A DNA stretch of 64,000 bases from Candidatus Hydrogenedentota bacterium (lineage in GTDB: Bacteria > Hydrogenedentota > Hydrogenedentia > Hydrogenedentales > SLHB01): contig BTVY01000017.1 in the NCBI GenBank assembly GCA_045863335.1, positions 32,001-96,000 of the forward strand, written 5' to 3'. This document shows, one piece after another, positions 17,203 to 40,855 of the stretch. The notes below the pieces were generated by a model. It had not been told where the DNA came from. It worked only from the letters and a program-made list of their open reading frames with translations, and searched no databases. The translations under genes were made by a program, and so were the position numbers. Numbering within the stretch: the stretch's first letter is position 1; every line of letters starts with the position of its first letter.

Positions 17203-18963
17203 GTGCTTTGCAAGGCTCTAAATCGTTTTGTTTCAGTTTTGTTGTGCATATCCATGGTGGTCATCTCACCTGGTTGTGCCGGAATCCAGCAGGTCGCGCC
17301 ACCCACGTCAAAACAAGCCGTTCTTGAAATGGAACTCCAGGAAGCGGAGGAGATCCGGGCGGACAAGAAGCGGGCGCAGGATATCATCGATCAGCAGTTG
17401 CGAATCGCATCGATGGCGCTGGATGCGGGCGACCCGGTTCTGGCGCGAGAGACCTTGGTTGACGCTACGGGTTGGATGGCGGCAAACAATGCCACGCCCG
17501 AAGACTTTGATGAACGAGCAGACCGCGCCACACGGATGATTGGCGGCGAAGAGCGCGACAAATACTTCCTCGGCGATCCCTACGAACAATTCGCTGCCTA
17601 CTTTCTCTTAGGTGTCCTGGACTTTCAAGCCGGCGACTACGAGAACGCCGCATCGTCATTCCGAAGTGCTTCGCTATCCGATACCTTGTCCCGTCAACCC
17701 GGATACCAATCCGACAGCTATCTCGCGTTCCTCCTGGAAGGCGTCAGCCAGCGCATGGCGGGAAACAGTGCGGCCGCGGAAGAAGCATTCCGGCTCGCGG
17801 CCAATGCCCACGGATTCCGGCAACGCATGCCCTTGGTGGCTCAGGCGATGTATCTTGGCGGCTACCACTATCTGGAAGCGCGCAAAGCCGAAGGTGGGGA
17901 CGAAAAAGAAACTGATGCCCGCTTTGACGTGGTGTTTCCGCTGGTCTTCAACCACTTGCCTCTTGCCACAGCATTGGGTAAAGACGATCTCGCGACCGTC
18001 ATTCAGCAAGCGGCCGATAGCGCGAGCGGCGCGCTTGATGCCGAGGAATTTGAGAAAGACTCGATCGAGGAAAGCGTCGCGAAAGAGTACAAGAAGGAAC
18101 TGCCTGCGGCCAAGGCGGACATTCAGGCAATTTGCGATCAGGCAGTTACCGCGTTGACGCCCGAGATGCTTGCTGCACTGGACGCAGCTGAAACCTACTT
18201 CTCCAAACTGGTCGACGAGTGCCGGAACCCGCTTACCAATACCTTTGTCATTCAGCAAACCGGAAATGCGCCGTACAAGATCCGTATGGGCGCATATGGC
18301 GAAGCGCTGCAGTTTCGTTCAGTGCCCAATCCCGTGGATCGTGCGCTGATCGCGCTCCGGCCCAGTGACGGGGCGGCATCCCAGGGGGAACGAGTCCTGC
18401 TCGCCGCGAACGGAGATTCCCTCGATTACCAGGCGCGCACGCGCGGGGGCCGCGAGATGGATCACATCTTGAAGGGAAAGGCGCAGTTCAAAGATGCCAT
18501 GTCCGTGTCGAATAACTTGGCGGCATGGGGCGGCACCGTAGCAACCACGATCGCACTAGCGCAAGCGATGACCGTTGTGACGACGGTGACGACAACAACC
18601 ACCTACACCGTCTCCTCGACGGGGGCGGTCACCGCGACGACCACGACCACGACCAGTTCTGGCATGGCCGGTTTTGGCGCCGCCGGTACGGCACTGGGAG
18701 TTGCGGCAGCCATGTACGGCATCTATGTCGTGACGATGGTGATTATGGACAGTCTGCATCCGGAAGGCGATGTCCGCGGATGGCACGAATTGCCGGACCG
18801 CTATTACTTTGCCTGCGACTCACTCGCGCCCGGCAGCTATGAGATCGAGTCCAATTACTTCGATAAGCTCGGCCAGCCGCTCGACGAAAAGACGGAGCGA
18901 TACCGCTTCACCGTAGACGGCGAGCGTCCGGCTTTGCTGTATTTGGGGACCCCATGGAGTTGA
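17203..18963 (+). CDS. TPR-containing lipoprotein, COG3014-like
   Basis: GGAGG RBS + GTG; SPGC lipobox-like motif; YFLGDPYEQ, RGGREMDHILKGKAQFK and GDVRGWHELP (compare ADTRxWxxLP); context with LpoB/YcfL. Confidence 0.65.
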   Translation: MLCKALNRFVSVLLCISMVVISPGCAGIQQVAPPTSKQAVLEMELQEAEEIRADKKRAQDIIDQQLRIASMALDAGDPVLARETLVDATGWMAANNATPEDFDERADRATRMIGGEERDKYFLGDPYEQFAAYFLLGVLDFQAGDYENAASSFRSASLSDTLSRQPGYQSDSYLAFLLEGVSQRMAGNSAAAEEAFRLAANAHGFRQRMPLVAQAMYLGGYHYLEARKAEGGDEKETDARFDVVFPLVFNHLPLATALGKDDLATVIQQAADSASGALDAEEFEKDSIEESVAKEYKKELPAAKADIQAICDQAVTALTPEMLAALDAAETYFSKLVDECRNPLTNTFVIQQTGNAPYKIRMGAYGEALQFRSVPNPVDRALIALRPSDGAASQGERVLLAANGDSLDYQARTRGGREMDHILKGKAQFKDAMSVSNNLAAWGGTVATTIALAQAMTVVTTVTTTTTYTVSSTGAVTATTTTTTSSGMAGFGAAGTALGVAAAMYGIYVVTMVIMDSLHPEGDVRGWHELPDRYYFACDSLAPGSYEIESNYFDKLGQPLDEKTERYRFTVDGERPALLYLGTPWS

Positions 18964-19007
18964 GTGGCTCGAACGCGCGACTGGAAATGGAGGCTGAGGA
19001 GATCGCA

Positions 19008-20060
19008 ATGAAACATGAGATTTGGCTATGGTGCGGCGCGCGCGCCTTTCGTCGGATGCATTTTGTATTGGCAGGAGTACTCGTCCTTACGGCGGCAAGC
19101 GGTTGCGCGACGACACGGCAGATTAGCAAGGCAGAAAAAGCATACGAGGCCGGCAACCACCAAGCGGTCCTGGAAAACTTCGAAGAGGTCATTGACACGA
19201 AACCGGAGGTGCTGAACCGGGGCCACCGGCAAGATGAGGTCGCCCACTACCGGGACAGCCAAATCGCGTATGGATTCGACCAGGCAAAACAGGCGGAGGC
19301 CCAGGGCGAACTTGTCCATGCCTGGATTTGGTACATCCAGACGTCGGCGGTGGACGGGGAGCGCGAGGAATGCAAGCAGGCGTTGGACGAAGCAAAACGC
19401 GTGAAGCAGGCCATCGCAGATCGCTACATGGAAGAGGCGTCGAACGCCCTCGCTCGTGGGGCCAGAGTGGAAGCCGCGACCGCCGCCAGCCAAAGTGTAT
19501 GGTACGGCAACGATGCCGCCCGCGATCTGTTCCGAGAAGCCTCCCAAAGCCAGGAATTGCCGCCTTGGTTTGAGGGAGATATCACGAATGCCGACGTCCA
19601 GGGTGTCGTGCGGACCGACAGCATCGAGCGATTCCAGATTCGCGAAGTATTTGCGCCGTACGGTATCCCGGTGTATTTCGGCGAACCGCCCCGCTACTAC
19701 GTATCCATGGGTGAAATGAAGGTTGAAGGCACGCACTACACGAGAGAGGCCCCCGCGGAGTTTGCCCAATACGATGCTCTTTTCAAGATGAGCCGCAAGG
19801 CCAAGAAGAAAGGCGCTGACGCGATTATCAACGTGCAGTTCTGGACGAAGCGCAAAAAGCCATTCACACGGGGCGAGTTTGTCAAGTTTGCCGTGCTTCC
19901 GGAAGACAACGGCGATACAAAAGAAGCGATCACGCGTATCGGCGACGGCGGCCTGCCCGTGGAATCGATTGTCGCTGCCTTCGCCGGTTCGGCCGGCGCC
20001 GAATCGGCCGCTGAAGCGGATGCTTCATCTGGAATTACCGTGTCGGAGGCATCGCAATGA
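19008..20060 (+). CDS. Lipoprotein with TPR-like helices and a C-terminal YbjQ-like (GADAIINV) module
   Basis: AASGC lipobox; helical repeats; KAKKKGADAIINVQF. Confidence 0.6.
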   Translation: MKHEIWLWCGARAFRRMHFVLAGVLVLTAASGCATTRQISKAEKAYEAGNHQAVLENFEEVIDTKPEVLNRGHRQDEVAHYRDSQIAYGFDQAKQAEAQGELVHAWIWYIQTSAVDGEREECKQALDEAKRVKQAIADRYMEEASNALARGARVEAATAASQSVWYGNDAARDLFREASQSQELPPWFEGDITNADVQGVVRTDSIERFQIREVFAPYGIPVYFGEPPRYYVSMGEMKVEGTHYTREAPAEFAQYDALFKMSRKAKKKGADAIINVQFWTKRKKPFTRGEFVKFAVLPEDNGDTKEAITRIGDGGLPVESIVAAFAGSAGAESAAEADASSGITVSEASQ

Positions 20061-20716
20061 TTCGCATAGCTTTGTTCAGTCCCGGAAGCTGTCGTTCGGT
20101 TTTGATGCTGTCCGGGCTACTGGTCCTGGCGCTGGGTTGTGCGTCGGGCGGCGGGACGGCGACTCCGGCTGCTCCGCAATCCTCGAAGTACCAAGACGTG
20201 GATCGGGATTCGGGCCTTCGCGTTACCGAGATCGAAGCCCAAGACATTTCCGCCGCGGCACAACACTTCGTACGAAGCATGCTGGCAGATGACGATGTCA
20301 TGGGGTACGGCAGCGCTCCACACGTGGTGATGGAAGCGGAAGATTTTGTTGTGAATGTATCCGGGCGGCTCAACAAGGAAATGCTCATTTCTCGCCTTCG
20401 AGGTGTCATGGATCAGGAAGCAAAAGGACAGATGATTCTAGTGACACGGGAACAAATGGACCGAATTCTCAAAGAGGCCGAACTCGAACGGCAAGGGCTT
20501 GTCGGCAGTGGAACGCTGCCACGCGCAACGCGAATGTTGGGTTCGGACTTCCTGCTGCGCGGACGTATCGAGGACCACGATACGACGGACGGAACGGCCG
20601 TCGAGAAATTTACCCAGATTTCTATCGAACTCTACGACAAATCAAGTGCGCAAATCGTTTTCAGCGATTTCTACGATTTCAAGAAAAGAGCCGCGATACA
20701 TCCCGCGAATCGATAG
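20057..20716 (+). CDS. LpoB/CsgG-like lipoprotein
   Basis: LALGC lipobox; IEAQDISAAAQHFVRSML and LGSDFLLRGRIED...QISIELYDKSSAQIVFSD match the LpoB pattern. Confidence 0.75.
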   Translation: MIRIALFSPGSCRSVLMLSGLLVLALGCASGGGTATPAAPQSSKYQDVDRDSGLRVTEIEAQDISAAAQHFVRSMLADDDVMGYGSAPHVVMEAEDFVVNVSGRLNKEMLISRLRGVMDQEAKGQMILVTREQMDRILKEAELERQGLVGSGTLPRATRMLGSDFLLRGRIEDHDTTDGTAVEKFTQISIELYDKSSAQIVFSDFYDFKKRAAIHPANR

Positions 20717-20742
20717 CGCCGCACGATGACCTGGAGTTAGCC

Positions 20743-21198
20743 ATGCGAAATTGTCAGTCGGTAGTAAGGTTTCTGATCGTCCCCGTCCTCGTTGTCGGCG
20801 GCCTGTTCGGCTGCCGTTCGACGCCGGACGACGCGAAGGTGCGACAGGAAGCGACCGGTGCGCCGCTTTACGTCGAGCACCCGGCTGTCCAAATTCGCCT
20901 TAACAGCGTTGGCTTCCTGCAACCGTACCTGAACAAGGTCGTGGCCGTGGAACAAACCGGCGCGGACCGCACGGACACAAACTCGTTGCAAGCCTATGCC
21001 GTATTGCGCAATCGAACGGGACAGAACGTCGCCCTGCAAGCGCGAACCCAGTTCTTCTCGACCGAGCGAATACCGTCCGAGGGGCCGGGTGAATGGCGGT
21101 CTGTATTTCTGTCGCCACGATCGGTCGAAACCGTTCGGATGAACTCCATTGGAAAAGACCATGCATACTACTACATCGAAATCCAGGAACATCCATGA
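20743..21198 (+). CDS. YcfL (DUF1425)-like lipoprotein
   Basis: LFGC lipobox; LRNRTGQNVALQARTQFF...WRSVFLSPRS; adjacent to the LpoB-like gene. Confidence 0.75.
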   Translation: MRNCQSVVRFLIVPVLVVGGLFGCRSTPDDAKVRQEATGAPLYVEHPAVQIRLNSVGFLQPYLNKVVAVEQTGADRTDTNSLQAYAVLRNRTGQNVALQARTQFFSTERIPSEGPGEWRSVFLSPRSVETVRMNSIGKDHAYYYIEIQEHP

Positions 21199-21209
21199 GG
21201 TGCCGCGCC

Positions 21210-22499
21210 ATGACCATAGGTAAGATCAGCCGGATTGCGGGTGTCGTCTTGCTGGCCCTGGGATGTGCGACGATTGACCCGACTTCGGCGGCGGCCGCAT
21301 CAAACGAAACTAACGCGCTGGAGCCCTACGAGACAGAGACCCCTCCGGGGACCGTTGCGCCTCCAAAAACAACGATTCCCCGAAGGCCATACCGGCCGGA
21401 CGGCGTGGTTGAACTGCCCGAAGACCGCCCCGGCATCATGGAGTACCTGGAAGCTCAGGAGAAGGCGCGACAGGAGCAGGAGCGCCAGCAGTACGAACTG
21501 GATCGGATGCGGGTAGAGACTGAGTTGCTTAAGGAACTCAATATCTACAATGCGAACGAAAAAGGGGTCTCGAGTTCCAGTCAGTCATCCAATCCTTCCG
21601 GTGCCGCCCTCTCCACGGTTTCCCCGTCTCCGGGGCAAAGGCCTAGCGCGAGCCCGTCGGGTCCACCAGTTTCGGGGCAAGAAGGCTGGGCGGTCATAGT
21701 CGGTGTTTCCAAGTACCAGAAATCCGCATTGGACCTGACGTACGCCGCATCTGACGCGCAACAGCTTTATCGCTGGCTGATCTCGCCGGCGGGCGGAAAC
21801 TACGACGCCGAACGGGTCACATTACTTCTCGACGAGCATGCGACGAAGGCTGAGATCTCCCAGGCAATCCGGGGGCTCGAAAAGGCCCTTCCGGAAGATA
21901 TCGTCGTGTTCTTCTTCTCCGGCCACGGAGCCCCTCTCGATGACACGAGCGACATCCTATACTTTCTCCCATATGAGGCGGACAACGAGAACCTCGCCGA
22001 AACTGGATACAAGATGCGAACTCTGCTGGGCGACCTTCAAGACAATGTCAAAGCGGAGAAGCTCATTGTCGTGGCCGATGCGTGCCATTCCGGAGGCATT
22101 GGTAAGTTGCGCGGCGATCCCCGCGCTATCGTCGTTGAGAAAGTGCAAAAGGAGATGACCAAGAAAGTCAACGACGGTATGCACGAGTTGCTTCGCGGAG
22201 AGGATCGCGCGGAGACGCCGTCACTTGATGGAACCGTTATGTTTACCGCGTCGAACGCGGAAGAGGTGTCTCGCGAAGCGGCCGATTGGGGTGGCGGGGT
22301 GTTTACCCACGCGATGCTGCGGGGTTTGACGGGAAAAGCGGATCAAGATGCGAACGGGCATGTGACAGTTGGAGAACTCTCCGCTTACGTATCCCGCGAA
22401 GTACGGGAAGCAACGAACGATGCGCAGGTGCCGCGCCTTTCCGGGGACGCCGATGCGGAGTTCATTGACCGCGTAACCGTCCGCCTGATTGATGAATAG
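21210..22499 (+). CDS. Caspase-family (peptidase C14) lipoprotein
   Basis: GAGGTG RBS; LALGC lipobox; WAVIVGVSKY, catalytic dyad FFSGHG and ADACHSGG, GGVFTHAMLRGL. Confidence 0.9.
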   Translation: MTIGKISRIAGVVLLALGCATIDPTSAAAASNETNALEPYETETPPGTVAPPKTTIPRRPYRPDGVVELPEDRPGIMEYLEAQEKARQEQERQQYELDRMRVETELLKELNIYNANEKGVSSSSQSSNPSGAALSTVSPSPGQRPSASPSGPPVSGQEGWAVIVGVSKYQKSALDLTYAASDAQQLYRWLISPAGGNYDAERVTLLLDEHATKAEISQAIRGLEKALPEDIVVFFFSGHGAPLDDTSDILYFLPYEADNENLAETGYKMRTLLGDLQDNVKAEKLIVVADACHSGGIGKLRGDPRAIVVEKVQKEMTKKVNDGMHELLRGEDRAETPSLDGTVMFTASNAEEVSREAADWGGGVFTHAMLRGLTGKADQDANGHVTVGELSAYVSREVREATNDAQVPRLSGDADAEFIDRVTVRLIDE

Positions 22500-22677
22500 C
22501 GGAATCCGTCAGGGAATCGGGAGCGACACCGGCAGGGCGAGATGCTGGAAATACATGAACGTCATGTCGTTCGCGAGCGCAATCATGATCATGATGCCGA
22601 TCGCAAATAGGGCAGTGATCAATACGTATTCTAGCGCCATGATGAGGTTCCTTCATACCGTAACCGGGAGGCCGTTT

Positions 22678-23595
22678 GTGCATCGCATTATTGCTGGATA
22701 CCCGCGGAAACGCAAGCGGAATAGGGTCGCTGCCGAGTTCCTAATCCTATTGTGGTTTGTGTTTGGCGTTTGTTCCGCTGGCGCAGTTGCCCCGGCGGGG
22801 CACCAATCGCTCCGGGTGGCGTTGAATGGCGTGGCGGCGCCACCCGTTGCGCCAACTGCGTCAACGGCACTTCCAACCACGCCGCAAGACGTGGTGGCAC
22901 GTGTCGTCGCCGAGAAGAGCGACTGGTTCGAGTGGGTCGGGACGAGCGACGCCCCGGACGTGGTGGTGGACATCGCAGACCACCTAGATTCCGAGACCGG
23001 AGCATCGACTTGGGCCATGCGCGTGACGTCTCGCCTCGAAACGACCCAAGAAAAGAATGTGCCAGAACATTTTCCCGCGATTATTGCTATTGAACCGTTC
23101 CTTCGAATTGAGTTGCGGCGGCTGTACACCATCAAGAATCTAGCGGTCCTTGATCGTTCGGACGTACCGATCCGCTTCGGTCTGGTCGAATCGAATTCGA
23201 AAGTGCTCCAAGAAGGCAGCGAAGTCCGGTTTCGGTTCTTGTCCCCTGTTGCCGGATATATCAGCCTCGTCAATGTGGACGCGGCCGGGAACATGCATGT
23301 CATATTTCCAATCGGAGACGAGTCGAACAAAGTTAGGGCTAACGAGGAACTTGTCATCCCGCCGAGCGACCCATCGGAAGCAACCTACAAATACACAGTA
23401 GGCGGCGATCAGTTCGGTCGCGAGTACGTCAAGGTAGTCTTTTCCACGGTCCCATTGCAGATCAAAGGTGAGTTTACGGAACCGAGCGCCTACGTCAGCC
23501 GGGTGAAGTCGGACTTGGAAGGGTATCGCGACCCGCTCATTCGAATCGCGACCCAGAGCGTCTCCTACACCACGGAACCGAAGAACGGACGTTAG
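22678..23595 (+). CDS. Exported DUF4384 domain protein
   Basis: GGGAGG RBS + GTG; signal-like N-terminus; GSEVRFRF...GYISLVNVDAAGNMHVIFP...GREYVKVVFS. Confidence 0.75.
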   Translation: MHRIIAGYPRKRKRNRVAAEFLILLWFVFGVCSAGAVAPAGHQSLRVALNGVAAPPVAPTASTALPTTPQDVVARVVAEKSDWFEWVGTSDAPDVVVDIADHLDSETGASTWAMRVTSRLETTQEKNVPEHFPAIIAIEPFLRIELRRLYTIKNLAVLDRSDVPIRFGLVESNSKVLQEGSEVRFRFLSPVAGYISLVNVDAAGNMHVIFPIGDESNKVRANEELVIPPSDPSEATYKYTVGGDQFGREYVKVVFSTVPLQIKGEFTEPSAYVSRVKSDLEGYRDPLIRIATQSVSYTTEPKNGR

Positions 23596-23643
23596 TGGCG
23601 AAGAACCGAATCCGTGGAACAGGGGCAGTAAAGGAGAAGGTCA

Positions 23644-24696
23644 TTGAAGGTGGAACAGCCTGCCGGCTTTCGGCTAATCCGTATCTGCGCGTTGTATCTG
23701 CTCGCAATCACGTGTCTATGCGGTTTCGCGTTCTCGCAAGACAATTCCGAGGACAACGAAGTGGACCAACAACTCACTCCACATCAAAAGAGGCTATTGG
23801 AAATCCTGGCCTTTGGAAACGAGTTTCGAGTCCTGGCTGCGGGAGATAGCTTTGGGACGATCGAGGCGTTTGCATCCCCGGACTTTCGGGGCCAATGGGC
23901 AACAGAAATCAAGCCCCAATTTGATGGGGATTCCGTGCTGCTTGAAGACTTCTTCTCGTCTGCGGTTCTGTTTGCGGGACGAATTGGACCCACCCGTTGC
24001 ATCCTGGTTTTCTACAATCCGTGGAGCGATGCTGCATTCTGTATGGGCGCGGATTTCGGCGAACACACCATCCTCGATGGCGCAATCCTGGCGGGCGAAC
24101 GGCTCCGTGGCGAACCGATCAACGAGAAGGCAGTCATGCCGTCATGGCAGCGCGTGGACGCCACGATCGCGGAAGGGATGGCAAAGGTGTACGTCGAGAC
24201 CGAAAAGGCGATTTCGCGCCTCTACCCGCCCACGGACAGTTACCAGCTTCTCCCCCTCTCCTTAAAGGCCTCACTTGAGCCACTCGACGTGGAGGTCTTG
24301 CCAGTGATCTTTCGCATGCGCGCCCGCATGACGATGTTCCAGGACTTTCTGTCGCCCGAGCCGGGCAGTTTCGGCGCAGAGGCGCTGGCGAATGTCGGTA
24401 GTGTGCTGGAAGCCGTGCAGGAAGGGGATAAGGAGACCTTTTTGGCGCTTACACAAGTGGATGAAACAGAAACCGCTACAGAGAACCTATTCGAGTTACC
24501 GGAATTAGTCCGGTCCCGCATGGCGCCGAATTTCTTCCTGACACGGCCTGGAGAGGGCGCGATTGCGGGCCTAGTGAATCCGGAAACACCGCAGTGGTTC
24601 GTGGTGCTTACGTTGGAGACAGGTGCATCCGGACCCGTGACCACCCGCGCCGATGTATACAAATTCGATCTGTTGCATATTTTGCTGAATGGGTGA
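23644..24696 (+). CDS. Exported hypothetical protein
   Basis: 350-aa ORF within the operon; AGGAG RBS; signal peptide ending GFAFS. Confidence 0.7.
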   Translation: MKVEQPAGFRLIRICALYLLAITCLCGFAFSQDNSEDNEVDQQLTPHQKRLLEILAFGNEFRVLAAGDSFGTIEAFASPDFRGQWATEIKPQFDGDSVLLEDFFSSAVLFAGRIGPTRCILVFYNPWSDAAFCMGADFGEHTILDGAILAGERLRGEPINEKAVMPSWQRVDATIAEGMAKVYVETEKAISRLYPPTDSYQLLPLSLKASLEPLDVEVLPVIFRMRARMTMFQDFLSPEPGSFGAEALANVGSVLEAVQEGDKETFLALTQVDETETATENLFELPELVRSRMAPNFFLTRPGEGAIAGLVNPETPQWFVVLTLETGASGPVTTRADVYKFDLLHILLNG

Positions 24697-24718
24697 AAAG
24701 ACAGGGGGCGGTATTACG

Positions 24719-25699
24719 ATGTTTAACGGCACGCGCTTCCCGGTGTACCTAGTGGTCGTGCTCGCACTGGGGCTTCTTCCCTATGTGCAGCCCGCATTCC
24801 TTCCGGCCGCTTCCGCTCAGGGCGTACAGAACGGCTCCCTAACGCAAGGTAGTACGCTGCAGGAAGCCCGAATCCACCCCGACAGCTCTCCGTCGCGAAT
24901 TCGAACCGCCCTCCCCCGCACGACGAGCAACAAGACGTTCCTGGACCACCTTGCTACGGCCACGAAAGCCGGGAAAATCATTACCAAGGTTGGTGAATTT
25001 GAAACGAAGAAGACCGAGCTCCTGGTCAACACGGTCGAGACGCTGGACAAGCTCTCAGATGCGGCGCTCGATGCAGATCAGGTACAAGAGTTAATCAAGA
25101 AGATTGAGAAGCGCGGCGCCTTTGGCAAGTGGGTGGGTGCCATCGCCAAGGTCGTTGATCTGGCGGACATCGCAACGCGCATCGCAAAGAAGCACCAAGA
25201 TGAAGGCCGGGTTGAGGCGCTAAACCTCGCCGTGAAGGAAGCAATAAAGTTCGGCGCAAAGAAATTGGCAGGCATGGGCGGCAAGTACGCCGGCCACACT
25301 GTCGGTGGGGCGGGCGCGACCGCGCTTACCGGTGGGGTGCCCGGCCCTCACACGGTGGCCGGAGCCGTGGCAGCGGGGTACCTCGGAGAAGAAATCAGCA
25401 AATTGGCCGCGGGAAAACTTGTAGACGAATTCTACGAGCCGTTGCTCGGCAAAATCGTACGGAAATACATACGCGAGTGGCTGGGAGACGATGGAAGGCC
25501 GCCGTCTCGCCGCGACCCCATACAACCCGTGCCGACGCCTGGGATTCAGGCAACGAGACCGCCGCCGGAGTCGGAGTTCGAAACTAACGCCAACCATGCG
25601 GACGGTGGCGAATACGATGGACCGAGTCTAGGAGACACGGCCCAAGGCGACGACTGGTACAACCAGTACCTCCGCGATCGGTTCTCAAGCTCAAAATGA
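24719..25699 (+). CDS. Exported helical protein with a glycine-zipper hairpin (candidate effector)
   Basis: Signal peptide; GMGGKYAGHTVGGAGATALTGG...AGAVAAGYLG; Pro/acidic tail. Confidence 0.6.
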   Translation: MFNGTRFPVYLVVVLALGLLPYVQPAFLPAASAQGVQNGSLTQGSTLQEARIHPDSSPSRIRTALPRTTSNKTFLDHLATATKAGKIITKVGEFETKKTELLVNTVETLDKLSDAALDADQVQELIKKIEKRGAFGKWVGAIAKVVDLADIATRIAKKHQDEGRVEALNLAVKEAIKFGAKKLAGMGGKYAGHTVGGAGATALTGGVPGPHTVAGAVAAGYLGEEISKLAAGKLVDEFYEPLLGKIVRKYIREWLGDDGRPPSRRDPIQPVPTPGIQATRPPPESEFETNANHADGGEYDGPSLGDTAQGDDWYNQYLRDRFSSSK

Positions 25700-25739
25700 T
25701 GCGGTTTGGGCGTAGCATACGGAGGCGACAAGAGCGATC

Positions 25740-30664: not shown

Positions 30665-30731
30665 GATCTCTCCATCTCTTTGGTACGCCAACTATCGATT
30701 CCAAAGAAAGCCATGTGGACGCGGCGAAGGA

Positions 30732-33263: not shown

Positions 33264-35137
33264 TACTTGCTCTCCTGTCCTGCGCTGAACAGCACGTCCA
33301 ACGACACTCCCCCCTTTCGCATGAGTTCGTTGAAGAACGAAGGCACGTAGCCGGTATGGCATAGCAGCCCTTCCGATCGCCCCTCGGTGTAACTGTAACT
33401 GAAGATGTCTTCGACCACGATTTCTCCGCTCTCGGGATCGATCCCAACGATTTCAGCAATTTTCGTGACCTTCCGGGTTCCGTCTCCGAAGCGGGTATAT
33501 TGAATAACCAAGTCGATCGCCGACGCAATCTGTTCGCGTATTGCGCGGATTGGCATGTCCGCCGCCAGCAGAACCATTGTTTCCAGCCGACGCATCATAT
33601 CGGCGGGAGTATTGGCGTGACCGGTCGTCATTGAACCATCGTGCCCGGTATTCATTGCTTGCAGCATATCCAGCGCCTCGGCGCCCCGGCATTCGCCGAC
33701 GATAACCCGGTCCGGCCGCATTCGCAACGCGTTCTTTACCAAATCGCGGATTGTGTACGCGCCCTTCCCTTCCACATTAGCGGGACGCGACTCCAGGGAT
33801 ACCACGTGCTCCTGACGAAGCTGCAATTCCGCGGAATCTTCAATGGTCACGATGCGTTCGCGCGCCGATATGTACTCCGAAAGGCAATTCAGGAGAGTTG
33901 TCTTACCGGCGCCGGTGCCTCCCGAGATAATGATATTTTTTCGAGCCGCCACACATGCCTTCAGAAACTCCGCGACCTGCTGGTTGAATGCCCTCTTCTC
34001 ATGGATAAGGGAATCGACGCTTAACGGGATCTTGGAAAACCGGCGAATGGTGATACAGGGACCCCGTAGCGCCAGAGGAGGAATAATCACATTGACACGA
34101 CTACCATCAGGAAGCCGGGCATCGACCAGCGGCTTGCTTCGATCCACGCGCAACCCCAACGGGGCAACAATGCGTTCCACCACCGCCATGGCCACACTGT
34201 CGGAGATAAACTGGCGGCCGGTCTTTTGCAGAACACCGTTCTTTTCCACGTAAATCAGCCGTGGATGAACGACCATGATCTCGGAGATGTTCGGCAGATG
34301 GAGCAATGGTTCGAGGGGACCAAAACCAAACACCGTGTCCATCAGATTCCGTTTGAGCAGAGCCCGCAACAGTTGGCTCTTCAGCCCCTTCATGAGTTCG
34401 TATCGAAAATCTGCATAGTGCGTGTCGACCCACACTTCCAGATCTTCCGTGTGAAGTGACGACCTGCCTCCGTTCATCAAGTCCATCTTGGCATTCGCGT
34501 AAACCTGCGCGACGAGTCGACGCAACTGAGGAACGCCGAGCCGTTCGAAGAAATCGAATGTTGCGTCCGCTGCCGCATCTTGCATATGGACCGCGGCAAC
34601 AGCTTCCTTCAAGTTCGTACGGCAGACATACTCCACAATGTCCGGCGAAATCGAATCGCACTTCTCGTCGATAATCTCCTTCACCTGTACCTCGACCATC
34701 TTGCGATACTCGCCCTTGGGAAGCGTCTTCGGATCGATTTTCCGGAGATCAAGCCGCTGAAGAAGTTCGTCGTGAATCCCTTTCTCGAGATCGCGAAGTC
34801 CGTCGGCGCTCGCATCATCGACCTTGTCATGGAGGGCGCGGGCGTCCTCGACCATAACCTTTAAGACATACTGCCCAATTCCGATCTCATCGTTCCGTTG
34901 GATGGTATACGTCTTGTGATTTGGAATGACCTGGTCGTTGACCTTTGTTGGCGCGCTGCCCACCGGACGGATGGCCACGAGATCCCGTTCGAATTTCAGG
35001 ATCGCCTGCCGCTGAGACACGAAAAAGTTATCAAGCACGATATCGTTGTCGACATCCCTGCCAATGATGTAATTGCGCTCCTCCAGGTCGATTTCCTGGC
35101 GGGTATTGAGGATCATGTTGGTGATCAGCAGCTTCAT
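33263..35137 (-). CDS. cpaF: FHA-fused CpaF/TadA ATPase
   Basis: N-terminal IIGRDVDNDIVL...VSQRQA FHA domain; GFGPLEPLL, GGTGAGKT, LRMRPDRVIVGECRG, MNTGHDGS. Confidence 0.93.
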   Translation of the reverse strand: MKLLITNMILNTRQEIDLEERNYIIGRDVDNDIVLDNFFVSQRQAILKFERDLVAIRPVGSAPTKVNDQVIPNHKTYTIQRNDEIGIGQYVLKVMVEDARALHDKVDDASADGLRDLEKGIHDELLQRLDLRKIDPKTLPKGEYRKMVEVQVKEIIDEKCDSISPDIVEYVCRTNLKEAVAAVHMQDAAADATFDFFERLGVPQLRRLVAQVYANAKMDLMNGGRSSLHTEDLEVWVDTHYADFRYELMKGLKSQLLRALLKRNLMDTVFGFGPLEPLLHLPNISEIMVVHPRLIYVEKNGVLQKTGRQFISDSVAMAVVERIVAPLGLRVDRSKPLVDARLPDGSRVNVIIPPLALRGPCITIRRFSKIPLSVDSLIHEKRAFNQQVAEFLKACVAARKNIIISGGTGAGKTTLLNCLSEYISARERIVTIEDSAELQLRQEHVVSLESRPANVEGKGAYTIRDLVKNALRMRPDRVIVGECRGAEALDMLQAMNTGHDGSMTTGHANTPADMMRRLETMVLLAADMPIRAIREQIASAIDLVIQYTRFGDGTRKVTKIAEIVGIDPESGEIVVEDIFSYSYTEGRSEGLLCHTGYVPSFFNELMRKGGVSLDVLFSAGQESK

Positions 35138-35170: not shown

Positions 35171-36073
35171 TCATGATGCGTCCTCAGCCCCATCGGAAAG
35201 CCGCTCCTGCTCAAAGGTCCGAAACGTTCCGAAATCCATATCGCCAATCTCCGCGTGCTCCATGTCCGCGTCGTCTCGAAGCGTCAGGGTCAGCTTTCCA
35301 CCAAGTTCACGGGCAAAGACAAGCAGTTCCGCCTCTTCAGGAGTCGCCCGCAAGGTGACCACGCTGTACGCGTTTCGCTCGGGAGCAACGAGACGGTATT
35401 CACGTTCTCCGAAGTTCTGTCCGACGCCCAAAACGTACATGCGCTGTAGCAGCGTTCGGGTAAAAAGCCCGCCTTGAATCGGGGCCGAAGGAAAGGCACG
35501 CGGCATCGTTGAGGCCGACTGCGCTCCCCCTAGCAAATCTCGGGTCGAGGCTGCGCCCGGTGCGCCTTCCTCCTCGGTTTGAGGATTTTGCCTCGGCATT
35601 CTTGATAAGGCGGCTGGCTGCTGCAATTGATCTGCGTCCGTTTCAAAAGTGGCGACGACATCGACGTAGTCCCCGGGTTCGATGATGTTCGCAACTGACG
35701 ATTCCATGCTGACCGAGATCGATATGGCGCGTTCGCCAGGGTTCAGACGCTCGAGAACTTCCCGCTTCGGAGCCCGTTGGTCAAAGAACTCGTAAAGAAC
35801 CGGCTCGCCCGCGGGGATATCGACGGTCGGGGTTTGACCAATGACCACGACGCTGTCCTCTCGTTTCACGGCGAATCGTGAAATGGCGTCGAACGCAATC
35901 GGGATGGCGACGCGCTGCAGTTGTTCGGCCGCAATGGGTTTTCCTGCTGGCAACATCTCCCGAGCCACGAGTATCTCCAGACTCTTCGTCTGGCGCTCGA
36001 TATATAGATGCGTCGCGAAGGCCGCGCCGAGACCGGCCACGATAGCAACCAGCAGGAGCACTTTTGATGTCAT
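35171..36073 (-). CDS. cpaB: Flp pilus assembly protein CpaB/RcpC
   Basis: N-terminal TM, SAF domain (ILVAREMLPAG), GERAISI, PGDYVDVV, VTLRATPEEAELL. Confidence 0.9.
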   Translation of the reverse strand: MTSKVLLLVAIVAGLGAAFATHLYIERQTKSLEILVAREMLPAGKPIAAEQLQRVAIPIAFDAISRFAVKREDSVVVIGQTPTVDIPAGEPVLYEFFDQRAPKREVLERLNPGERAISISVSMESSVANIIEPGDYVDVVATFETDADQLQQPAALSRMPRQNPQTEEEGAPGAASTRDLLGGAQSASTMPRAFPSAPIQGGLFTRTLLQRMYVLGVGQNFGEREYRLVAPERNAYSVVTLRATPEEAELLVFARELGGKLTLTLRDDADMEHAEIGDMDFGTFRTFEQERLSDGAEDAS

Positions 36074-36978
36074 CGTTTCACGCTCTCCATTGTTGACGCA
36101 GATTGCGATACCTGTTGGATTTTCAACAAGCTTGTTGTCTCGGGGTCCGTCTCGCGCGGAACGTGGAAGAACCGCGCGCGCAACCCGTCTCCTTCCCACT
36201 CTTGAACAACCGGTCCGTCCTCGCCAAGTGGCCGCGCGGTTTGAATCCCCGAATAGGCGGTCCCATAGAACGACACCACGTCAGGGGTTGCGGCGAGGTG
36301 TTCGACAAGGTAGGTTGTGAACGAATCTCCCGATGAGATGTGTTCGACTGATTCCACGACTCGGGCTTCGGGATGAAGCACAACCTGATGGCCAACCGCA
36401 GTATCCAGTGCCCGCTCTTCGGAAGGCACGGCCATATTCCAAAAGGACTTCCGGCTTTGCAGTCGAAGGGTGGTCAGCACGCACCCTTGCCGTGTTTCTC
36501 GGGCAATTGCCATCAGTATTCGACGGGGTTCGGGGTATGCCAGATCGGCATAGGTGCGGACTACCGTGTGGGCGCCGACATTGTACGAATGGAAAGGGAT
36601 AGATGTCGTCGCCATCGCTTCGAAATGCTCCATGCTTGCGGCCGCAGGTGCGGCTGCGTCGGATGGCGGTAACCCGCCGTACCGTTCGTCCAGACGATCG
36701 ATGGCCTCCGCAGGTGAACAATCGAGGAATTGGGTCTGCGCATCCCAGGTCATCCCGCGAAAACGGAACTCCGTGCTTGTAATGCGTCGCTCTGTTTCCA
36801 CCGGATTTCGCCACGCACGACTGGCGTCAGCGCTTCCGCTAAGCAAATACACGTCGGCAAGGGCGCGACGCGCTGCCGGGTCGCCAAGAAAGATCCCGGC
36901 CAAAGCCGCAAGCGCCACGGCCGATGCGGTCGCGAACCGCAGGATGGGGATTCGGCTCTTCGGCGCGCGATAGCTCAT
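36070..36978 (-). CDS. Membrane-anchored hypothetical protein in the Tad operon
   Basis: 302-aa ORF coupled by ATGA overlaps to both neighbours; N-terminal TM. Confidence 0.75.
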   Translation of the reverse strand: MSYRAPKSRIPILRFATASAVALAALAGIFLGDPAARRALADVYLLSGSADASRAWRNPVETERRITSTEFRFRGMTWDAQTQFLDCSPAEAIDRLDERYGGLPPSDAAAPAAASMEHFEAMATTSIPFHSYNVGAHTVVRTYADLAYPEPRRILMAIARETRQGCVLTTLRLQSRKSFWNMAVPSEERALDTAVGHQVVLHPEARVVESVEHISSGDSFTTYLVEHLAATPDVVSFYGTAYSGIQTARPLGEDGPVVQEWEGDGLRARFFHVPRETDPETTSLLKIQQVSQSASTMESVKR

Positions 36979-37541
36979 TCCGAGGCCGGCCCCGACTCAG
37001 CTGCGGCGTTTAGCTCATCCATAAATGTACGAAATCCCTCCCACGCTTCGAGCGCGCTCTGGTGCATCTCTCCTGGCTCAACATCGTAATGATGGGGTCG
37101 CCGCTTCATCATGCGAAGCCGGGCTTGGATGCTCCGATTTTCGAAGCCAATGGATCTCCGATACGGCGCATTGAACTGAACCGTGGCTACCACGTCGACC
37201 TCCGTGGAATTGGCATCGACTGCAGACGGACTCAGAATCTGCCCCTGCCTGCGCGGATAGTACGCTATATCCTCCTGAACGTCGCGGTCCGCGCTCTCGC
37301 TGACATCGTTATCGCCATCTTGATCCTCATACCGCGGCACTCCGGCGACCGACTCGGTGAATGCGCCATGGCGCGCAGACGCGATTGCGTTATGCACCGT
37401 AGCGGTCGATTGCAAGAGCACCCACGAAAGCATCGCGACGGGAATCAAGAAAAAGGTGGAGAATAGGATTGCTTCGATTGCAGCCGCCCCCCATCGGTCA
37501 TTTTGGCTCGGAATTGCTCTCGTCGGCAAGGCCAGTCGCAT
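36975..37541 (-). CDS. TadE/TadF-like pseudopilin
   Basis: G|AAAIEAILF prepilin motif, ASARHGAF. Confidence 0.75.
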   Translation of the reverse strand: MRLALPTRAIPSQNDRWGAAAIEAILFSTFFLIPVAMLSWVLLQSTATVHNAIASARHGAFTESVAGVPRYEDQDGDNDVSESADRDVQEDIAYYPRRQGQILSPSAVDANSTEVDVVATVQFNAPYRRSIGFENRSIQARLRMMKRRPHHYDVEPGEMHQSALEAWEGFRTFMDELNAAAESGPASE

Positions 37542-37542: not shown

Positions 37543-38754
37543 TCAGTGATAGATCCCCCGGCCCGTTGCGCCGCTCTGTTGGAGCAGCGGTGCTGTCGTT
37601 TCGTCGGACACGTCGGGCAGTTTCTTCACCCGCGTCAGCTTGATGTCCCAATACTGTGTGGAGAGATCCCAACTGACGGGATTAAAGACTTGGGCTTGGG
37701 CTACCGTAACCGTTCCCAAATCCTGGGGTTGATCGAATCCCGACAAACGCCGGCTGAAAGGTGACAGATTTCGACTGCCGCTGCCGGCAACGAGCACAGC
37801 CGGTCTTGATTTGCCGTATGCTACTACGACGATCCCCAGTTCCTCGTAGGCGGATTCGAAGTCATACAAGGTCCAGGCCGGATCGAGATCGTCAAGGTTC
37901 TCGTAGAGGTGCACATACGCCTCCCCTTCCAAAGGACCCCTCCCCGAAATCGCTTCGATCTTCTCGATGTTCACCCGGTCCAGCCACGCAGTAAACGGCC
38001 CTTCCCCTAAGGCGTAATCGTCTTCCCGCAAACTGTACAAATAGTGATACCCGCGCCGGTTCGAATCGCCCGAGCCGGACTGTGAGCCGTACACCGTCGG
38101 CGATTCCCAATCCTGAGCGCCGCCCTCTCCTTCAAAGGCGGGGATATGTAGGGGGTAGGAAGAATCGGATTCGTGTGTGGGTCCCGCGATAATGGCCCCA
38201 CGGGCTCCGTTCTGCCGCGCGACGTTGTCTGCCGCCTGAACGGCCGCCTTGGGTGCGCTCGCTGTAATGCTCCGGTTATCACTCATCATAGCGCTAATGG
38301 CGGAACTGCAATTTCCCGGAACTGTGTTGTTGAAGTAGCTGCTGTTATTGATGATGAGTTCTTCCAGGTTTCGCGCCTTACGGTACTGTTCCTTCAAGGG
38401 AAACAAGTCCGGCGAATCCTCCATGGCTTCAAGAAGCTCGTTGTAGGTGGCATCATGGCTCTCGAACAAGGCCTCAGCCATGGGAACCATCGCCTCGGAC
38501 AAGGATTTCAGTGCCACGAACTCCGTAATCGCCACATTATTGTCCGAAATGGTGTTCATGCCGTCGGCGATCTCCTGAGCCGCTGCCAGACAAGCTGCGT
38601 CGGCTGCGGCCTGCATCCGCATCTTCTCGTGAAGGTTGGCGCTCATATTGAGGAAAAGCGCTAGAATGAAGACGAAACCGAAGGCCCCGAACATACCGAT
38701 GAATATCAGTTGTCCTTGCTGATCCTCATGGAATCTTTGCGCCACACGGCTCAT
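37543..38754 (-). CDS. TadG-like large pseudopilin
   Basis: RFHEDQQG|QLIF...MQAAADAACLAAA. Confidence 0.85.
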   Translation of the reverse strand: MSRVAQRFHEDQQGQLIFIGMFGAFGFVFILALFLNMSANLHEKMRMQAAADAACLAAAQEIADGMNTISDNNVAITEFVALKSLSEAMVPMAEALFESHDATYNELLEAMEDSPDLFPLKEQYRKARNLEELIINNSSYFNNTVPGNCSSAISAMMSDNRSITASAPKAAVQAADNVARQNGARGAIIAGPTHESDSSYPLHIPAFEGEGGAQDWESPTVYGSQSGSGDSNRRGYHYLYSLREDDYALGEGPFTAWLDRVNIEKIEAISGRGPLEGEAYVHLYENLDDLDPAWTLYDFESAYEELGIVVVAYGKSRPAVLVAGSGSRNLSPFSRRLSGFDQPQDLGTVTVAQAQVFNPVSWDLSTQYWDIKLTRVKKLPDVSDETTAPLLQQSGATGRGIYH

Positions 38755-38805
38755 CGGGCCCTCCATATCCAAGATGATCTGACGACAGCCGTCCCCATGG
38801 GTCCC

Positions 38806-39546
38806 TCAGAAGTCGGACGGTTTCTCGCCGGATCCTTCGTTCATCATCACGCAACGCGATCGAAGCACGGCGTACCCGCCCAAAGCATTCTCGCCCTGGC
38901 GCAACAGGCGGTTCGCGAACGGTAAGTTCAGGTGATATTCGTAGACCACTTCGACGACCACCGGATCGAATACGCCATAGCTGGTCCCACTCAGTACACG
39001 CACGTCCGTTTGCGCAAGCGCATTGCCATACTTGGTCCACCACATGTCAGACCGCGCGTATTGCCCCACGACCCGCCTGCTCAGCACCGGCCCGGCGATT
39101 ACTTCGATGCCTTCCGCGTAAGTGGCATTGCGACCGGATGCGTCAGCCCCCCCAACTTTCGCGGTCGTCGGTGAAACCGGGGAAACAGCAAATGCTGCCG
39201 CTTCCCGAATGATCTCCTCCTTCGCGGAAGTAAGTTCGTTACGTTCGCCGCCACTCGACTCTGGGATGACCACAATCGCGGCGCGAGCGGCATAGTACGA
39301 GCTGTATTTCACAAACTGGTACGCGTTGAGGAGCAAAAAGAACTGAACCGTGCACATGACGATCGGGAGATAAACGATGGACGTCATGGCAAAATCCAGC
39401 GATCCCGAAGCGCCGTTCTCGTCGCCAAGAAACGCGGCAAAGTTGCGACGCCTGCGCTCCGCCGAACCTCGCCGCCGCCACAACACGAGCCAAACGGCGC
39501 CCACTAGCACGACCAGCAGGTATCGGATAAAGAGAACGGCACTCAC
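38806..39546 (-). CDS. TadE-like pseudopilin with an N-terminal TM extension
   Basis: GTG start; FLGDENG|ASGSLDFAM...YSSYYAARAAIVVIP; VVVEVVYEY. Confidence 0.8.
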   Translation of the reverse strand: MSAVLFIRYLLVVLVGAVWLVLWRRRGSAERRRRNFAAFLGDENGASGSLDFAMTSIVYLPIVMCTVQFFLLLNAYQFVKYSSYYAARAAIVVIPESSGGERNELTSAKEEIIREAAAFAVSPVSPTTAKVGGADASGRNATYAEGIEVIAGPVLSRRVVGQYARSDMWWTKYGNALAQTDVRVLSGTSYGVFDPVVVEVVYEYHLNLPFANRLLRQGENALGGYAVLRSRCVMMNEGSGEKPSDF

Positions 39547-39548
39547 GA

Positions 39549-40079
39549 TTAACCCACCAACGTCGTTTGCATTAATCCCGACTCCTCGAGGATGAGACAC
39601 ACCATGACTGCAAGAAAGGCGGCGAGCCCAAACGGGATCCTCGTGTTGTCCATTTCCCGTGGCGGCTGCGGGAATGCGCGCAAGAGCACCATGCTCTTCA
39701 GATTGGTCAAGACAAAGCACGATGCTTTCCATATGCCCAATCGCATTATCAGTACGAACAACACGACCACCAGGGAGAATGAAAGTGCGTAAAACAGGAA
39801 GTGCAGCAGAAACGCCGTGCCCTTGAATGCGCCCACCATCATAGCGAGCTTCACGTCGCCGCCACCGATCATCTGCCAGTACCAGAACAGAATGAGCGAG
39901 GCGAACCCAAACACCACCGCCGCGAGATTTCCCGTGAACCGGTCCCAGCCCTGCCACGCAGCCAACGCAAGCCCGAGCGCAATTCCGGTGTACGTCAAGC
40001 GATTCGCGATCTTCCCGCTGGTCGTATCCGTCCACCCGGCCCAGGCGCAAAGCCCGGACAGCACGAGATTCGGCACCAC
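39549..40079 (-). CDS. cpaA: A24 prepilin peptidase (CpaA/TadV)
   Basis: Catalytic aspartates in WTDTTSGKIAN and GGGDVKL; C-terminal IPFG. Confidence 0.9.
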   Translation of the reverse strand: MVPNLVLSGLCAWAGWTDTTSGKIANRLTYTGIALGLALAAWQGWDRFTGNLAAVVFGFASLILFWYWQMIGGGDVKLAMMVGAFKGTAFLLHFLFYALSFSLVVVLFVLIMRLGIWKASCFVLTNLKSMVLLRAFPQPPREMDNTRIPFGLAAFLAVMVCLILEESGLMQTTLVG

Positions 40080-40246
40080 TTTCCCACTCCCTATTCGACT
40101 TCCATCGGATCGCAGCAGCACTCAAGGCGTGGATATGCCGCCGGTAAATGCCGGCAACACGAGGTTTCATAGACGCGAAGTCGCGCCGCTTACGTGCCTA
40201 AGGCTCAGCACCCCGGAGATTCCAATCACCGGTTCAGACCCAGTGA

Positions 40247-40438
40247 TCAGGGGTCGATCGTCGTACCTTCGATCTCGCTTTCGGCATCCTGAAACCAACC
40301 GATAATACTCTGTCCGAAGTAAATGATTCCGATGATAAGCGGGATTGCGACGAGGGCGACTATCATGATGGTGGACATTTCCGGCGCACCGGTTTCGTCA
40401 TCGTGGAAGCGCTTCACAAGTGCAGCAAGTGTTGGCAT
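40247..40438 (-). CDS. Flp-type pilin 1
   Basis: KRFHDDETG|APEMSTIMIVALVAIPLIIG; AGGAG RBS; lies upstream of the peptidase. Confidence 0.85.
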   Translation of the reverse strand: MPTLAALVKRFHDDETGAPEMSTIMIVALVAIPLIIGIIYFGQSIIGWFQDAESEIEGTTIDP

Positions 40439-40604
40439 TCTACCTCTCCTTCTCTTAATTCCCTACTCACCCCGAAAGTCCGCGTGTAGACACGGTTTAC
40501 CCACAGATCCGCAATGATAAGAAGGTACCCCTCATAGACCCCACGGGGCACAATCACCGAACACCCAAGAGCGATGCGCGACTCCAGATACGGCAGCCGT
40601 CGCT

Positions 40605-40633
40605 AGACTAGCAGAATTCACAGTGTCCGTCAA
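40605..40633 (-). promoter_or_regulatory. Sigma70-type promoter for pilin 1 / Tad operon
   Basis: Minus strand TTGACG-17 nt-TAGTCT between the two pilin genes. Confidence 0.55.
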
Positions 40634-40684
40634 CGGGGTTTCAAGCGTCAGGTTGAAGCGAAATGGCACCCTTGGCTCCTAACA

Positions 40685-40855
40685 TCACTCCATCGACGCG
40701 GCGCCTTTCAGCCATCCCAATATACGTCGGCCAAAAAGGATTAACCCAATGACGAGTGGAATCGCGACGAGTGCAACGATCAAAATGGTAGACATTTCCG
40801 GAGCGCCTGTTTCGTCGCGGTGAAAGCGCCGAAATACTATCGCGAGGGTATTCAT
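40685..40855 (-). CDS. Flp-type pilin 2 (56 aa, absent from the ORF track)
   Basis: Hand translation MNTLAIVFRRFHRDETGAPEMSTILIVALVAIPLVIGLILFGRRILGWLKGAASME*; paralog of pilin 1. Confidence 0.85.
   Translation of the reverse strand: MNTLAIVFRRFHRDETGAPEMSTILIVALVAIPLVIGLILFGRRILGWLKGAASME

Follow-up and report, generated by a model that had tools for sequence, protein, structure and literature searches.

A tRNA-Met genomic island encoding a Tad-type filament machine with two CpaF ATPases and no secretin gene in a Candidatus Hydrogenedentota bacterium

The DNA examined here is a stretch of 64,000 nucleotides from a Candidatus Hydrogenedentota bacterium (GenBank assembly GCA_045863335.1, contig BTVY01000017.1, positions 32,001 to 96,000 of the forward strand), referred to below as the window. 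It contains an island of 25.6 kb, bounded by 49-nt direct repeats, and the whole space between the repeats is occupied by two convergent operons. At their core they encode a filament machine of the Tad type (type IVc) that belongs to a distinct lineage. This machine possesses two CpaF-type motor ATPases, one full-length and fused to an FHA domain, the other (CpaF2) truncated, together with a membrane Ser/Thr kinase and a further FHA protein. No secretin gene is present at the locus, and CpaF2 shares its operon with a block of exported proteins that includes a caspase-like lipoprotein.

The left operon (genes A1-A10) spans 17140-27886 on the forward strand and the right operon (B1-B13) runs from 40855 to 27890 on the reverse strand. 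A sequence-only reading of the window had listed 23 genes at 17140-40855; open reading frame (ORF) calls and Pfam scans found all 23, in the order and on the strands given there, with none of the 23 frames interrupted. No predictor was used for signal peptides and lipoboxes, which, like the Walker and kinase motifs, were identified by eye. Neighbouring genes within an operon overlap or are separated by less than 50 nt. Where the two operons meet, the stop codons of cpaF2 and the kinase gene are 3 nt apart (27886/27890). A scan of this junction revealed no promoter or terminator-like site, and transcripts of the two operons may overlap.

The right operon displays the hallmarks of Tad/type IVc machines: a CpaF-type ATPase, the split TadB/TadC platform, RcpC/CpaB and a TadG domain. 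For comparison, 149 related loci were collected, 69 by a search with CpaF2 and 80 by a search with FHA-CpaF (loci are denoted by L and genomes by G below). The Flp-like pilins B1 and B2, which have no Pfam hit, share 68.5% identity over 54 residues, and homologous Flp-like ORFs lie beside other Tad loci (L108, L104, L111 (B2)) and in genome G066. The TadE-like genes were assigned through homology to related loci; B5 has TadG homologues at 55, 54 and 37% identity. B7 aligns weakly with proteins of L028, L021 and L108, and its structure prediction was unusable (predicted local distance difference test, pLDDT, 42). B9 matches the solved CpaF of Caulobacter at 3.8e-100, and membrane kinases adjoin the related loci L104, L107, L113 and L068.

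In the left operon, the ESM neighbours of A1 are TPR and 'COG3014 family' clusters (0.93-0.95), which we treat as a lead only, and A3 also matches TIGR02722 at 8.6e-10, under the cut-off of that model. A5 is a caspase-like C14 peptidase with a predicted His-Cys dyad, the GHG and D-x-C motifs of which are invariant in all four aligned homologues. Walker and His-box motifs are present in CpaF2, as read by eye.

Table 1. Features of the island and of its ends, with positions in the window
Feature	Position	Strand	Evidence or remark
tRNA-Met (CAT)	15892..15968	+	ARAGORN; 3´ half 15921-15969 = left repeat copy
HTH_38 fragment	16171..16863	-	Pfam HTH_38 8.7e-11; no catalytic domain found
A1, TPR-like lipoprotein, 607 aa	17140..18963 (alternative start 17203)	+	no Pfam/NCBIfam hit
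A2, lipoprotein, 368 aa	18954..20060	+	no family in Pfam scan
A3, LpoB-like lipoprotein	20057..20716	+	PF13036 7.9e-12; weak CsgG 0.0024
A4, small lipoprotein, 151 aa	20743..21198	+	ORF call; no family
A5, caspase-like C14 lipoprotein	21093..22499 (probable start near 21195)	+	PF00656 Peptidase_C14 3.5e-19
A6, DUF4384 protein	22489..23595	+	PF14326 4.9e-14
A7, exported, unnamed family recurring beside Tad genes	23644..24696	+	no Pfam/NCBIfam family
A8, exported Gly-rich protein	24689..25699	+	no family; 'glycine zipper' read by eye
A9, TPR + OmpA, peptidoglycan-binding	25740..26729	+	PF00691 4.3e-21; TPR sub-threshold
A10, CpaF2, short CpaF-type ATPase, 385 aa	26729..27886	+	T2SSE 1.1e-51
B13, Ser/Thr kinase-transmembrane (TM)-large TPR-like outer domain	27890..30691	-	Pkinase 4.9e-37
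B12, FHA-TM protein	30732..31478	-	FHA 9.1e-8
B11, TadC platform, 303 aa	31504..32415	-	T2SSF 1.7e-15
B10, TadB platform, 316 aa	32412..33362	-	T2SSF 2.8e-21
B9, FHA-CpaF motor ATPase	33263..35137	-	FHA 4.4e-11, T2SSE 1.4e-57
B8, CpaB/RcpC	35171..36199	-	PF16976 2.3e-21
B7, membrane-anchored, unknown family	36070..36978	-	same-size gene at same position in related loci
B6, TadE/F-like minor pilin	36975..37541	-	N-terminal motif identified by eye
B5, TadG-like large minor pilin	37543..38772	-	Tad PF13400 7e-8
B4, TadE-like minor pilin	38806..39570 (true start inside frame)	-	phmmer matches in 8 related loci
B3, CpaA/TadV prepilin peptidase, 190 aa	39549..40121	-	Peptidase_A24 1.3e-13, A24 domain alone
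B2, Flp-like pilin, 63 aa	40247..40438	-	ORF; hydrophobic core
B1, Flp-like pilin, 56 aa	40685..40855	-	ORF; hydrophobic core
Right repeat copy, right end of island	41519..41567	+	48/49 identical to 3´ half of tRNA-Met

Both operons are part of a genomic island integrated at the tRNA-Met gene. The two copies of the 49-nt repeat agree at 48 of 49 positions and no third copy lies in between. GC content is 0.54-0.59 within the island versus 0.59-0.62 outside it. In the congeneric genome G005, sequence 89% identical to the left flank extends up to window position 15942, and sequence 90% identical to the right flank begins at position 41806; the two matches are located on different contigs of G005, and for this reason an empty site on one congener contig was not seen. 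None of the island markers (A1, TadB and a profile of A7) was found in any of five genomes of the same genus (72-93% complete), and among 36 genomes of the same family three contain a best TadB match of 27-29% identity. The mobility proposed in the sequence-only reading is thus borne out by the repeated 3´ half of tRNA-Met, the lower GC content and the lack of the markers in all five congeners. The HTH_38 fragment beside the tRNA gene is presumably the N-terminus of an IS30-type transposase. A second direct repeat of 41 nt (90% identity; 16025-16065 and 41377-41417) is located just inside both ends of the island. The unit composed of this repeat and the tRNA 3´ half matches several further places in the congeners G001, G004 and G005, which suggests a family of elements targeting tRNA-Met genes.

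Metagenomes that several studies obtained from sludge and bioreactors contain near-identical copies of the island, and its host organism is a recurrent member of such communities. A metagenome variant diverged by about 2.6% has a 12.6-kb contig on which the region from A1 to the beginning of the kinase gene is retained. In the variant of run X6, 88 other letters stand in place of 91 nt of the window inside A1 (18536-18628), close to a Thr-rich stretch of this protein.

Phylogenetic trees of the ATPases were built with FastTree (161 ATPase domains) and IQ-TREE (58 rows). In the IQ-TREE phylogeny, CpaF2 proteins constitute one clade of 15 rows (support 100/99), apart from the other CpaFs (43 rows, 100/99). 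Thirteen of the 15 CpaF2 rows have their partner ATPase in the same tree, and 11 of these 13 partners fall into one clade as well (15 rows, 98/98). The partners of L030 and L176 are placed elsewhere; conversely, the partner clade includes L105, L106 and L107, which are devoid of CpaF2 in the fetched stretch. Within the partner clade, the FHA-CpaF of the window belongs to a sub-clade of 10 rows (100/99), the others being, by record title, six Planctomycetota, one member each of Chloroflexota and Acidobacteriota (L021), and a metagenome-assembled genome of Halioglobus. The FastTree phylogeny of 161 rows agrees with these clades.

The sequence-only reading had further assumed that CpaF2, encoded at the very end of the left operon, ties the two halves of the island together. 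This is supported, because the fetched loci of 17 out of 20 members of the CpaF2 clade encode another CpaF besides CpaF2; two of the three exceptions, L022 and L025, are located roughly 1 kb from the start of their contig. In L028, a single strand carries, in this order, genes for OmpA, CpaF2, CpaA, TadE, TadG, TadE, a protein of unknown family, CpaB, FHA-CpaF, TadB, TadC and an FHA-TM protein, the last one (FHA 2.5e-13) occupying the position of B12. An OmpA gene directly precedes cpaF2 also in G066, as it does in L028. The CpaF2 of L021 is the closest one outside the phylum of the host. One gene downstream of it, at 11802-13370, lies a gene for an exported WD40 protein of 522 aa with a CsgG-like C-terminal domain (1.5e-8), and this domain recalls the LpoB/CsgG-like A3.

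CpaF2 finds its best match among solved structures in the CpaF of Caulobacter (9.2e-83). Its residues 42-375 align with residues 158-491 of the 501 residues of the Caulobacter protein, and 41 residues precede the point matching residue 158, versus about 281 in B9. Because the alignment starts at residue 158, CpaF2 is devoid of the disordered region and of most of the three-helix bundle, which is counted in the minimum architecture in the available text of a 2025 paper on CpaF structure. This text describes FHA-fused CpaF as 'class III' architecture (PMC12019362), which is that of B9. Tad is described in the accessible parts of two sources as having one bifunctional motor (doi 10.64898/2026.07.08.737194; PMC11300603). 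In the literature searched, the sole account related to a second CpaF/TadA paralogue is, to the extent of the text available, that of a dispersed tadA repertoire in Bdellovibrio (doi 10.64898/2026.07.08.737194).

Pfam scans of the island proteins gave neither a secretin match nor a ParA/MinD-type match. In the genome as a whole (99.4% complete), there are eight secretin-domain matches, none of them on the contig of the window, and 20 T2SSE matches. The N-domain of CpaC-type secretins (PF13629) was not found in the genome, the control in Caulobacter being positive. The sole RcpC of the genome is B8 of the window, and the same applies to TadB/TadC, the Flp genes and the two CpaF-like ATPases (tblastn). 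Seven of the genome's own secretins exceed the Pfam cut-off, and they fall outside the secretins of Tad loci in a tree that is weak (158 columns, support 83). The genome is unusually rich in type IV filament genes in general, including two short tandem secretin genes on contig C46.

Presence of secretin genes was followed over the related loci by means of a profile composed of the genome's own secretins and one Tad-locus secretin. The profile matches 54 of the 149 loci. It matches all eight sister loci with two ATPases (L023, L024, L027, L031, L032, L111, L133 and L167) and the Kil-type locus L179; in five loci of the L024 type, the secretin gene is placed between CpaB and CpaF. No match was obtained in the window or in any of the 10 other loci of its ATPase sub-clade, three of these 10 being less than 9 kb long. 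The claim that neither a secretin nor a TadZ gene is recognizable at the locus stands for the window, and for secretin it extends to the sub-clade: secretin loss is a property of the sub-clade at the level of the locus. In the secretin-bearing sister loci L027 (13727-16363) and L032 (13637-15112), the genes after CpaF2 encode a TPR protein and, next, a lipoprotein with MopE metal-binding motifs and FG-GAP repeats.

The sequence-only reading also held that the two operons belong together, and a second genome, G066, of the same order as the host, substantiates this for the block A5-A10 and the whole right operon. G066 was found through its TadG homologue (55% identity). One of its contigs contains the whole right operon in the order of the window at 30-62% identity (B7 30%, B6 48%, B4 58%), including an FHA-TM protein at the position of B12 and a kinase 38% identical over residues 7-915 of B13. 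Another contig carries a caspase with an Lcl_C domain, a small ORF, a caspase, DUF4384, A7, A8, TPR-OmpA, CpaF2 and a third caspase. Identities there amount to 32% for the caspase A5, 33% for DUF4384, 41% for both A7 and TPR-OmpA and 75% for CpaF2. A8 is found at the same position with 24-28% identity (7e-15) and keeps its Gly-rich stretch and C-terminal GDDWY motif. None of these G066 orthologues is truncated, its two ATPases are each placed as sister to their counterparts in the window, and neither contig gave a secretin match. A5-A8 had been regarded as island-specific cargo on account of their absence from all 149 loci, and G066 overturned this view. The right operon of G066 starts 1.6 kb downstream of genes for tRNA-Gly and tRNA-Lys (L189, 6176-6343) and may be part of an island too.

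The four leading lipoproteins behave differently. A genome of the same family, G019, has A1-A4 alone without any Tad gene, at 38-47% identity (A1 46-48%, A2 47%, A3 38%, A4 46%), A1 was not found in G066, and a locus search with A1 gave no related loci. The 'lipoprotein complex' that the sequence-only reading had counted as part of the system is consequently better regarded as a separable add-on. In G019, the quartet (L101, G019:C7, 1183-12939) has as its neighbours two Ser/Thr kinases whose outer domains are of the FGE-sulfatase type, and an FGE-sulfatase protein.

Two proteins of the exported block belong to no named family. The A7 profile recovers 295 representative clusters at E<=1e-3 and 53 at E<=1e-30, is found in two of 135 genomes of the phylum of the host, and has distant copies next to a kinase in the Tad loci L176 and L196. 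All 10 of the longest (fused) relatives of the A7 domain that were scanned carry ankyrin repeats, one of them also TPR. A7 possibly consists of two NTF2-like domains: tandem NTF2-like matches reach Z up to 9.3 against a tool background of 7-8, in a model with a pLDDT of 51.8, and serve as a lead only. A8 shows no kinship to any named family in Pfam or NCBIfam, and its ESM scores stay below 0.9, at noise level: they lie at 0.83-0.86, and the clusters for glycine zippers and colicin pores among them at 0.83-0.84.

Taken together, we favour, with slightly better than even confidence, the view that the island encodes a mobile, phosphorylation-gated, two-motor Tad-like machine without a secretin, coupled to an exported block in the order of the host. 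From the parts described above we infer how gating, motors and exported block might work. CpaA would cut the two Flp pilins, and TadE-TadG-TadE would form a minor-pilin 'tip' set on the TadB/TadC platform with CpaB. The filament would be driven by two motors, the full-length CpaF with its N-terminal FHA domain and the truncated CpaF2. The membrane kinase may sense an envelope signal via its large outer TPR domain and phosphorylate threonines bound by the FHA-TM protein and FHA-CpaF, thereby switching filament assembly on. CpaF2 might be a counter-motor for retraction or disassembly, much like PilT next to PilB. The lineage would have lost the RcpA/CpaC secretin, and the locus carries no recognized TadZ gene. 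The exported block (caspase-like lipoprotein, DUF4384, A7, A8 and TPR-OmpA), presumably co-transcribed with CpaF2, most likely represents the periplasmic and outer-membrane side of the machine, or its clients, and the four leading lipoproteins would be a module of their own that this island has in addition. With the machine known from its genes, its filament may serve adhesion, secretion or attack. The combination of two motors, a kinase switch, no secretin gene and an exported caspase set is not described in the literature searched, supplementary tables lying outside the scope of that search.

Several observations weigh against this view. The block of caspase, DUF4384, A7 and A8 accompanies the machine in one further genome only, namely G066, which is of the same order, and on a different contig there. 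Among the 149 related loci, A1-A6 and A8 occur in none, A7 in one (L176) and OmpA in three, and the A7 profile is found in none of 401 genomes of the phylum of G065. L026 has a CpaF2 without a second CpaF or any Tad gene within 10 kb. The sub-clade locus L021 comes from an unpublished genome (G061). Five secretin genes of the host sit on four contigs without a T2SSE match, and any of them could serve the machine, so that a secretin borrowed from the host is possible; the tree that separates the host secretins from those of Tad loci is, as said, weak. For TadZ, a genome search with TadZ_N gave no match in the genome, but none in the controls either, so that it bears neither way on a genome-wide loss. 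No integrase was detected among the scanned ORFs of the island, a 246-aa ORF at 16009-16749 on the forward strand being outside that scan. Finally, cover in the RNA-library run X5 is even and low across the island, like that in DNA runs, and hence provides no evidence of expression.

The sequence-only reading saw in the island a Kil-like device for contact-dependent antagonism or secretion with a protease-activated payload. As a Kil-like weapon, the filament would assemble at sites of contact and kill neighbours, with A8 as a pore-forming payload matured by the caspase. We consider this unlikely. The FHA-fused ATPase, the extra FHA protein and the lipoprotein genes indeed resemble Kil as far as it is described in the text available (PMC8460266). 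L179 from Citreicoccus (Myxococcaceae) contains an FHA protein, a secretin, FHA-CpaF and a protein with two FHA domains, without TadB/C within 10 kb. It probably corresponds to Kil cluster 1, judging from its layout and not from a named M. xanthus sequence. In the IQ-TREE phylogeny, one supergroup of 26 rows (83/89) unites the clade of the window with L179 and two Bdellovibrionota loci. The exported, Gly-rich A8 is retained beside the caspase and DUF4384 genes in G066, and the system is mobile and patchy, like many antagonism systems. However, the rows of L179, L156 and L123 stand beside, and not within, the 15-row clade of the window (98/98; this applies to the ATPase only). Kil requires the secretin KilC, according to the text seen, and no secretin gene is present here. 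A8 displays no detectable toxin kinship, its ESM neighbours being at noise level, and no immunity gene was identified. Kil tip genes are, moreover, reported as restricted to Myxococcota in the portion of the literature available (PMC12075869). The likeness to Kil consequently holds for the parts, that is, the FHA-fused ATPase and further FHA proteins, and does not hold for lineage and secretin: the machine has Kil-like parts without being a member of Kil, because L179 and the Bdellovibrionota loci share its supergroup yet lie outside its clade.

Just as improbable, in our estimation, is an ordinary adhesive Tad pilus which borrows an unlinked secretin of its host, the genes upstream of OmpA-CpaF2 being functionally unrelated to it. 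The five host secretin genes without a T2SSE match on their contigs, the separability of the four leading lipoproteins and the absence of A5-A8 from other loci of the sub-clade are in line with such a pilus. But the sub-clade lacks a secretin at its loci under Planctomycetota, Acidobacteriota and Gammaproteobacteria record titles, and borrowing would be needed in each of them. None of the secretins of the genome has the CpaC N-domain, the order A5-A10 is kept in G066, and the genes from A1 to A10 are overlapping or tightly spaced.

A bolder version of the two-motor machine is, to us, somewhat less probable still. Here the horizontally mobile machine would be self-contained and need no secretin, its CpaF motors would work in opposition and be fired by Ser/Thr phosphorylation, and the filament would act through an exported module of its own, made up of the peptidoglycan anchor, an NTF2-like A7, the caspase and DUF4384 lipoproteins and A8. 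In this version, A8 would either provide the passage through the outer membrane or be a caspase-processed pore-former directed at neighbours.

We give a low probability to a type II secretion-like endopilus, that is, a periplasmic piston or scaffold which moves or exposes the lipoproteins, the caspase and A8 without forming a surface pilus. It would agree with the lack of a secretin gene across the loci of the sub-clade, with the OmpA peptidoglycan anchor adjoining CpaF2 in three loci and with exported proteins encoded in one operon with a motor. To our knowledge, however, the known endopilus systems still use a secretin. The full minor-pilin tip set with the large TadG is also kept, and such tips are tied to interaction with the outside in the text at hand (PMC12075869).

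That the island is decaying cargo, a non-functional remnant, is very improbable: a mere transposase fragment, no integrase found and RNA-library cover that is no proof of transcription would fit it, but all 23 frames are open, the variant diverged by about 2.6% keeps A1 to the start of the kinase gene on its 12.6-kb contig and G066 has full-length orthologues.

Tad pili are taught, as far as the sources were available, as one-motor machines which cross the outer membrane via a secretin (doi 10.64898/2026.07.08.737194; PMC6668835; PMC11300603). A well-supported lineage under several diderm phylum labels that encodes an additional, truncated CpaF and whose loci are devoid of a secretin gene turns retraction of Tad filaments and a secretin-free type IV filament in diderms into testable questions. 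Parts typical of Kil occur beyond the predatory orders to which Kil-like systems are said to be confined in the text available (PMC8460266, PMC12075869). Finally, an unnamed family with 295 representative clusters (A7) and periplasmic caspase and DUF4384 lipoproteins become tied to a filament machine.

Among known systems, the H1 type VI secretion system of Pseudomonas resembles the island in that a membrane Ser/Thr kinase and FHA proteins (PpkA/Fha1) gate an envelope machine, and the authors of the Kil paper draw the same parallel in the text seen (PMC8460266). The machine is a different one, though, no gene for a phosphatase was detected in the island, and the likeness is one of domain content.

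Secretin-less Tad systems of monoderms share with the window a Tad core without a secretin, and secretin loss is recurrent when Tad moved to monoderms, according to the part of the source available (PMC6668835). The record titles of the sub-clade, in contrast, name diderm phyla (Planctomycetota, Acidobacteriota, Gammaproteobacteria, Ca. Hydrogenedentes), and the ATPases of the window do not group with those of Bacillota or Chloroflexota.

Type IVa pili with PilB and PilT offer an analogy for the two motors: two paralogous hexameric ATPases would act on one platform, the second of them being without the N-terminal part. CpaF2 is nevertheless a paralogue of CpaF, not a relative of PilT, and a role in retraction may be ascribed to it by analogy only.

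Kil, as described in the available text of the original paper (PMC8460266), comprises an FHA-fused ATPase, many FHA proteins, two lipoproteins and a short essential secretin, KilC; it has one motor and no TadG, TadZ is not mentioned in that text, and its distribution is reported as restricted to three predatory orders. Kil tip genes are, in the portion seen of another paper, reported from Myxococcota only (PMC12075869). The window has in common with Kil, so far as these sources go, the FHA-fused CpaF (B9), a further FHA protein (B12), lipoprotein genes and the lack of a recognized TadZ gene. It differs by two CpaF-type motors and no secretin gene, where Kil has one motor and the required KilC, and by possession of TadG, a membrane Ser/Thr kinase and the block of caspase, DUF4384, A7 and A8.

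The classical Tad/Cpa systems of Aggregatibacter and Caulobacter share with the window Flp-size (here putative) pilins, the A24-only prepilin peptidase, TadE/TadG, TadB/TadC, CpaB/RcpC and a CpaF-type ATPase. No RcpA/CpaC, TadZ or TadD gene is recognized at the locus of the window. The ATPases of the window also stand apart from those of enterobacterial, alphaproteobacterial and Planctomycetota Tad systems with a secretin at the locus. Where classical Tad relies on one motor, the machine of the window has a second, truncated CpaF besides the full-length one.

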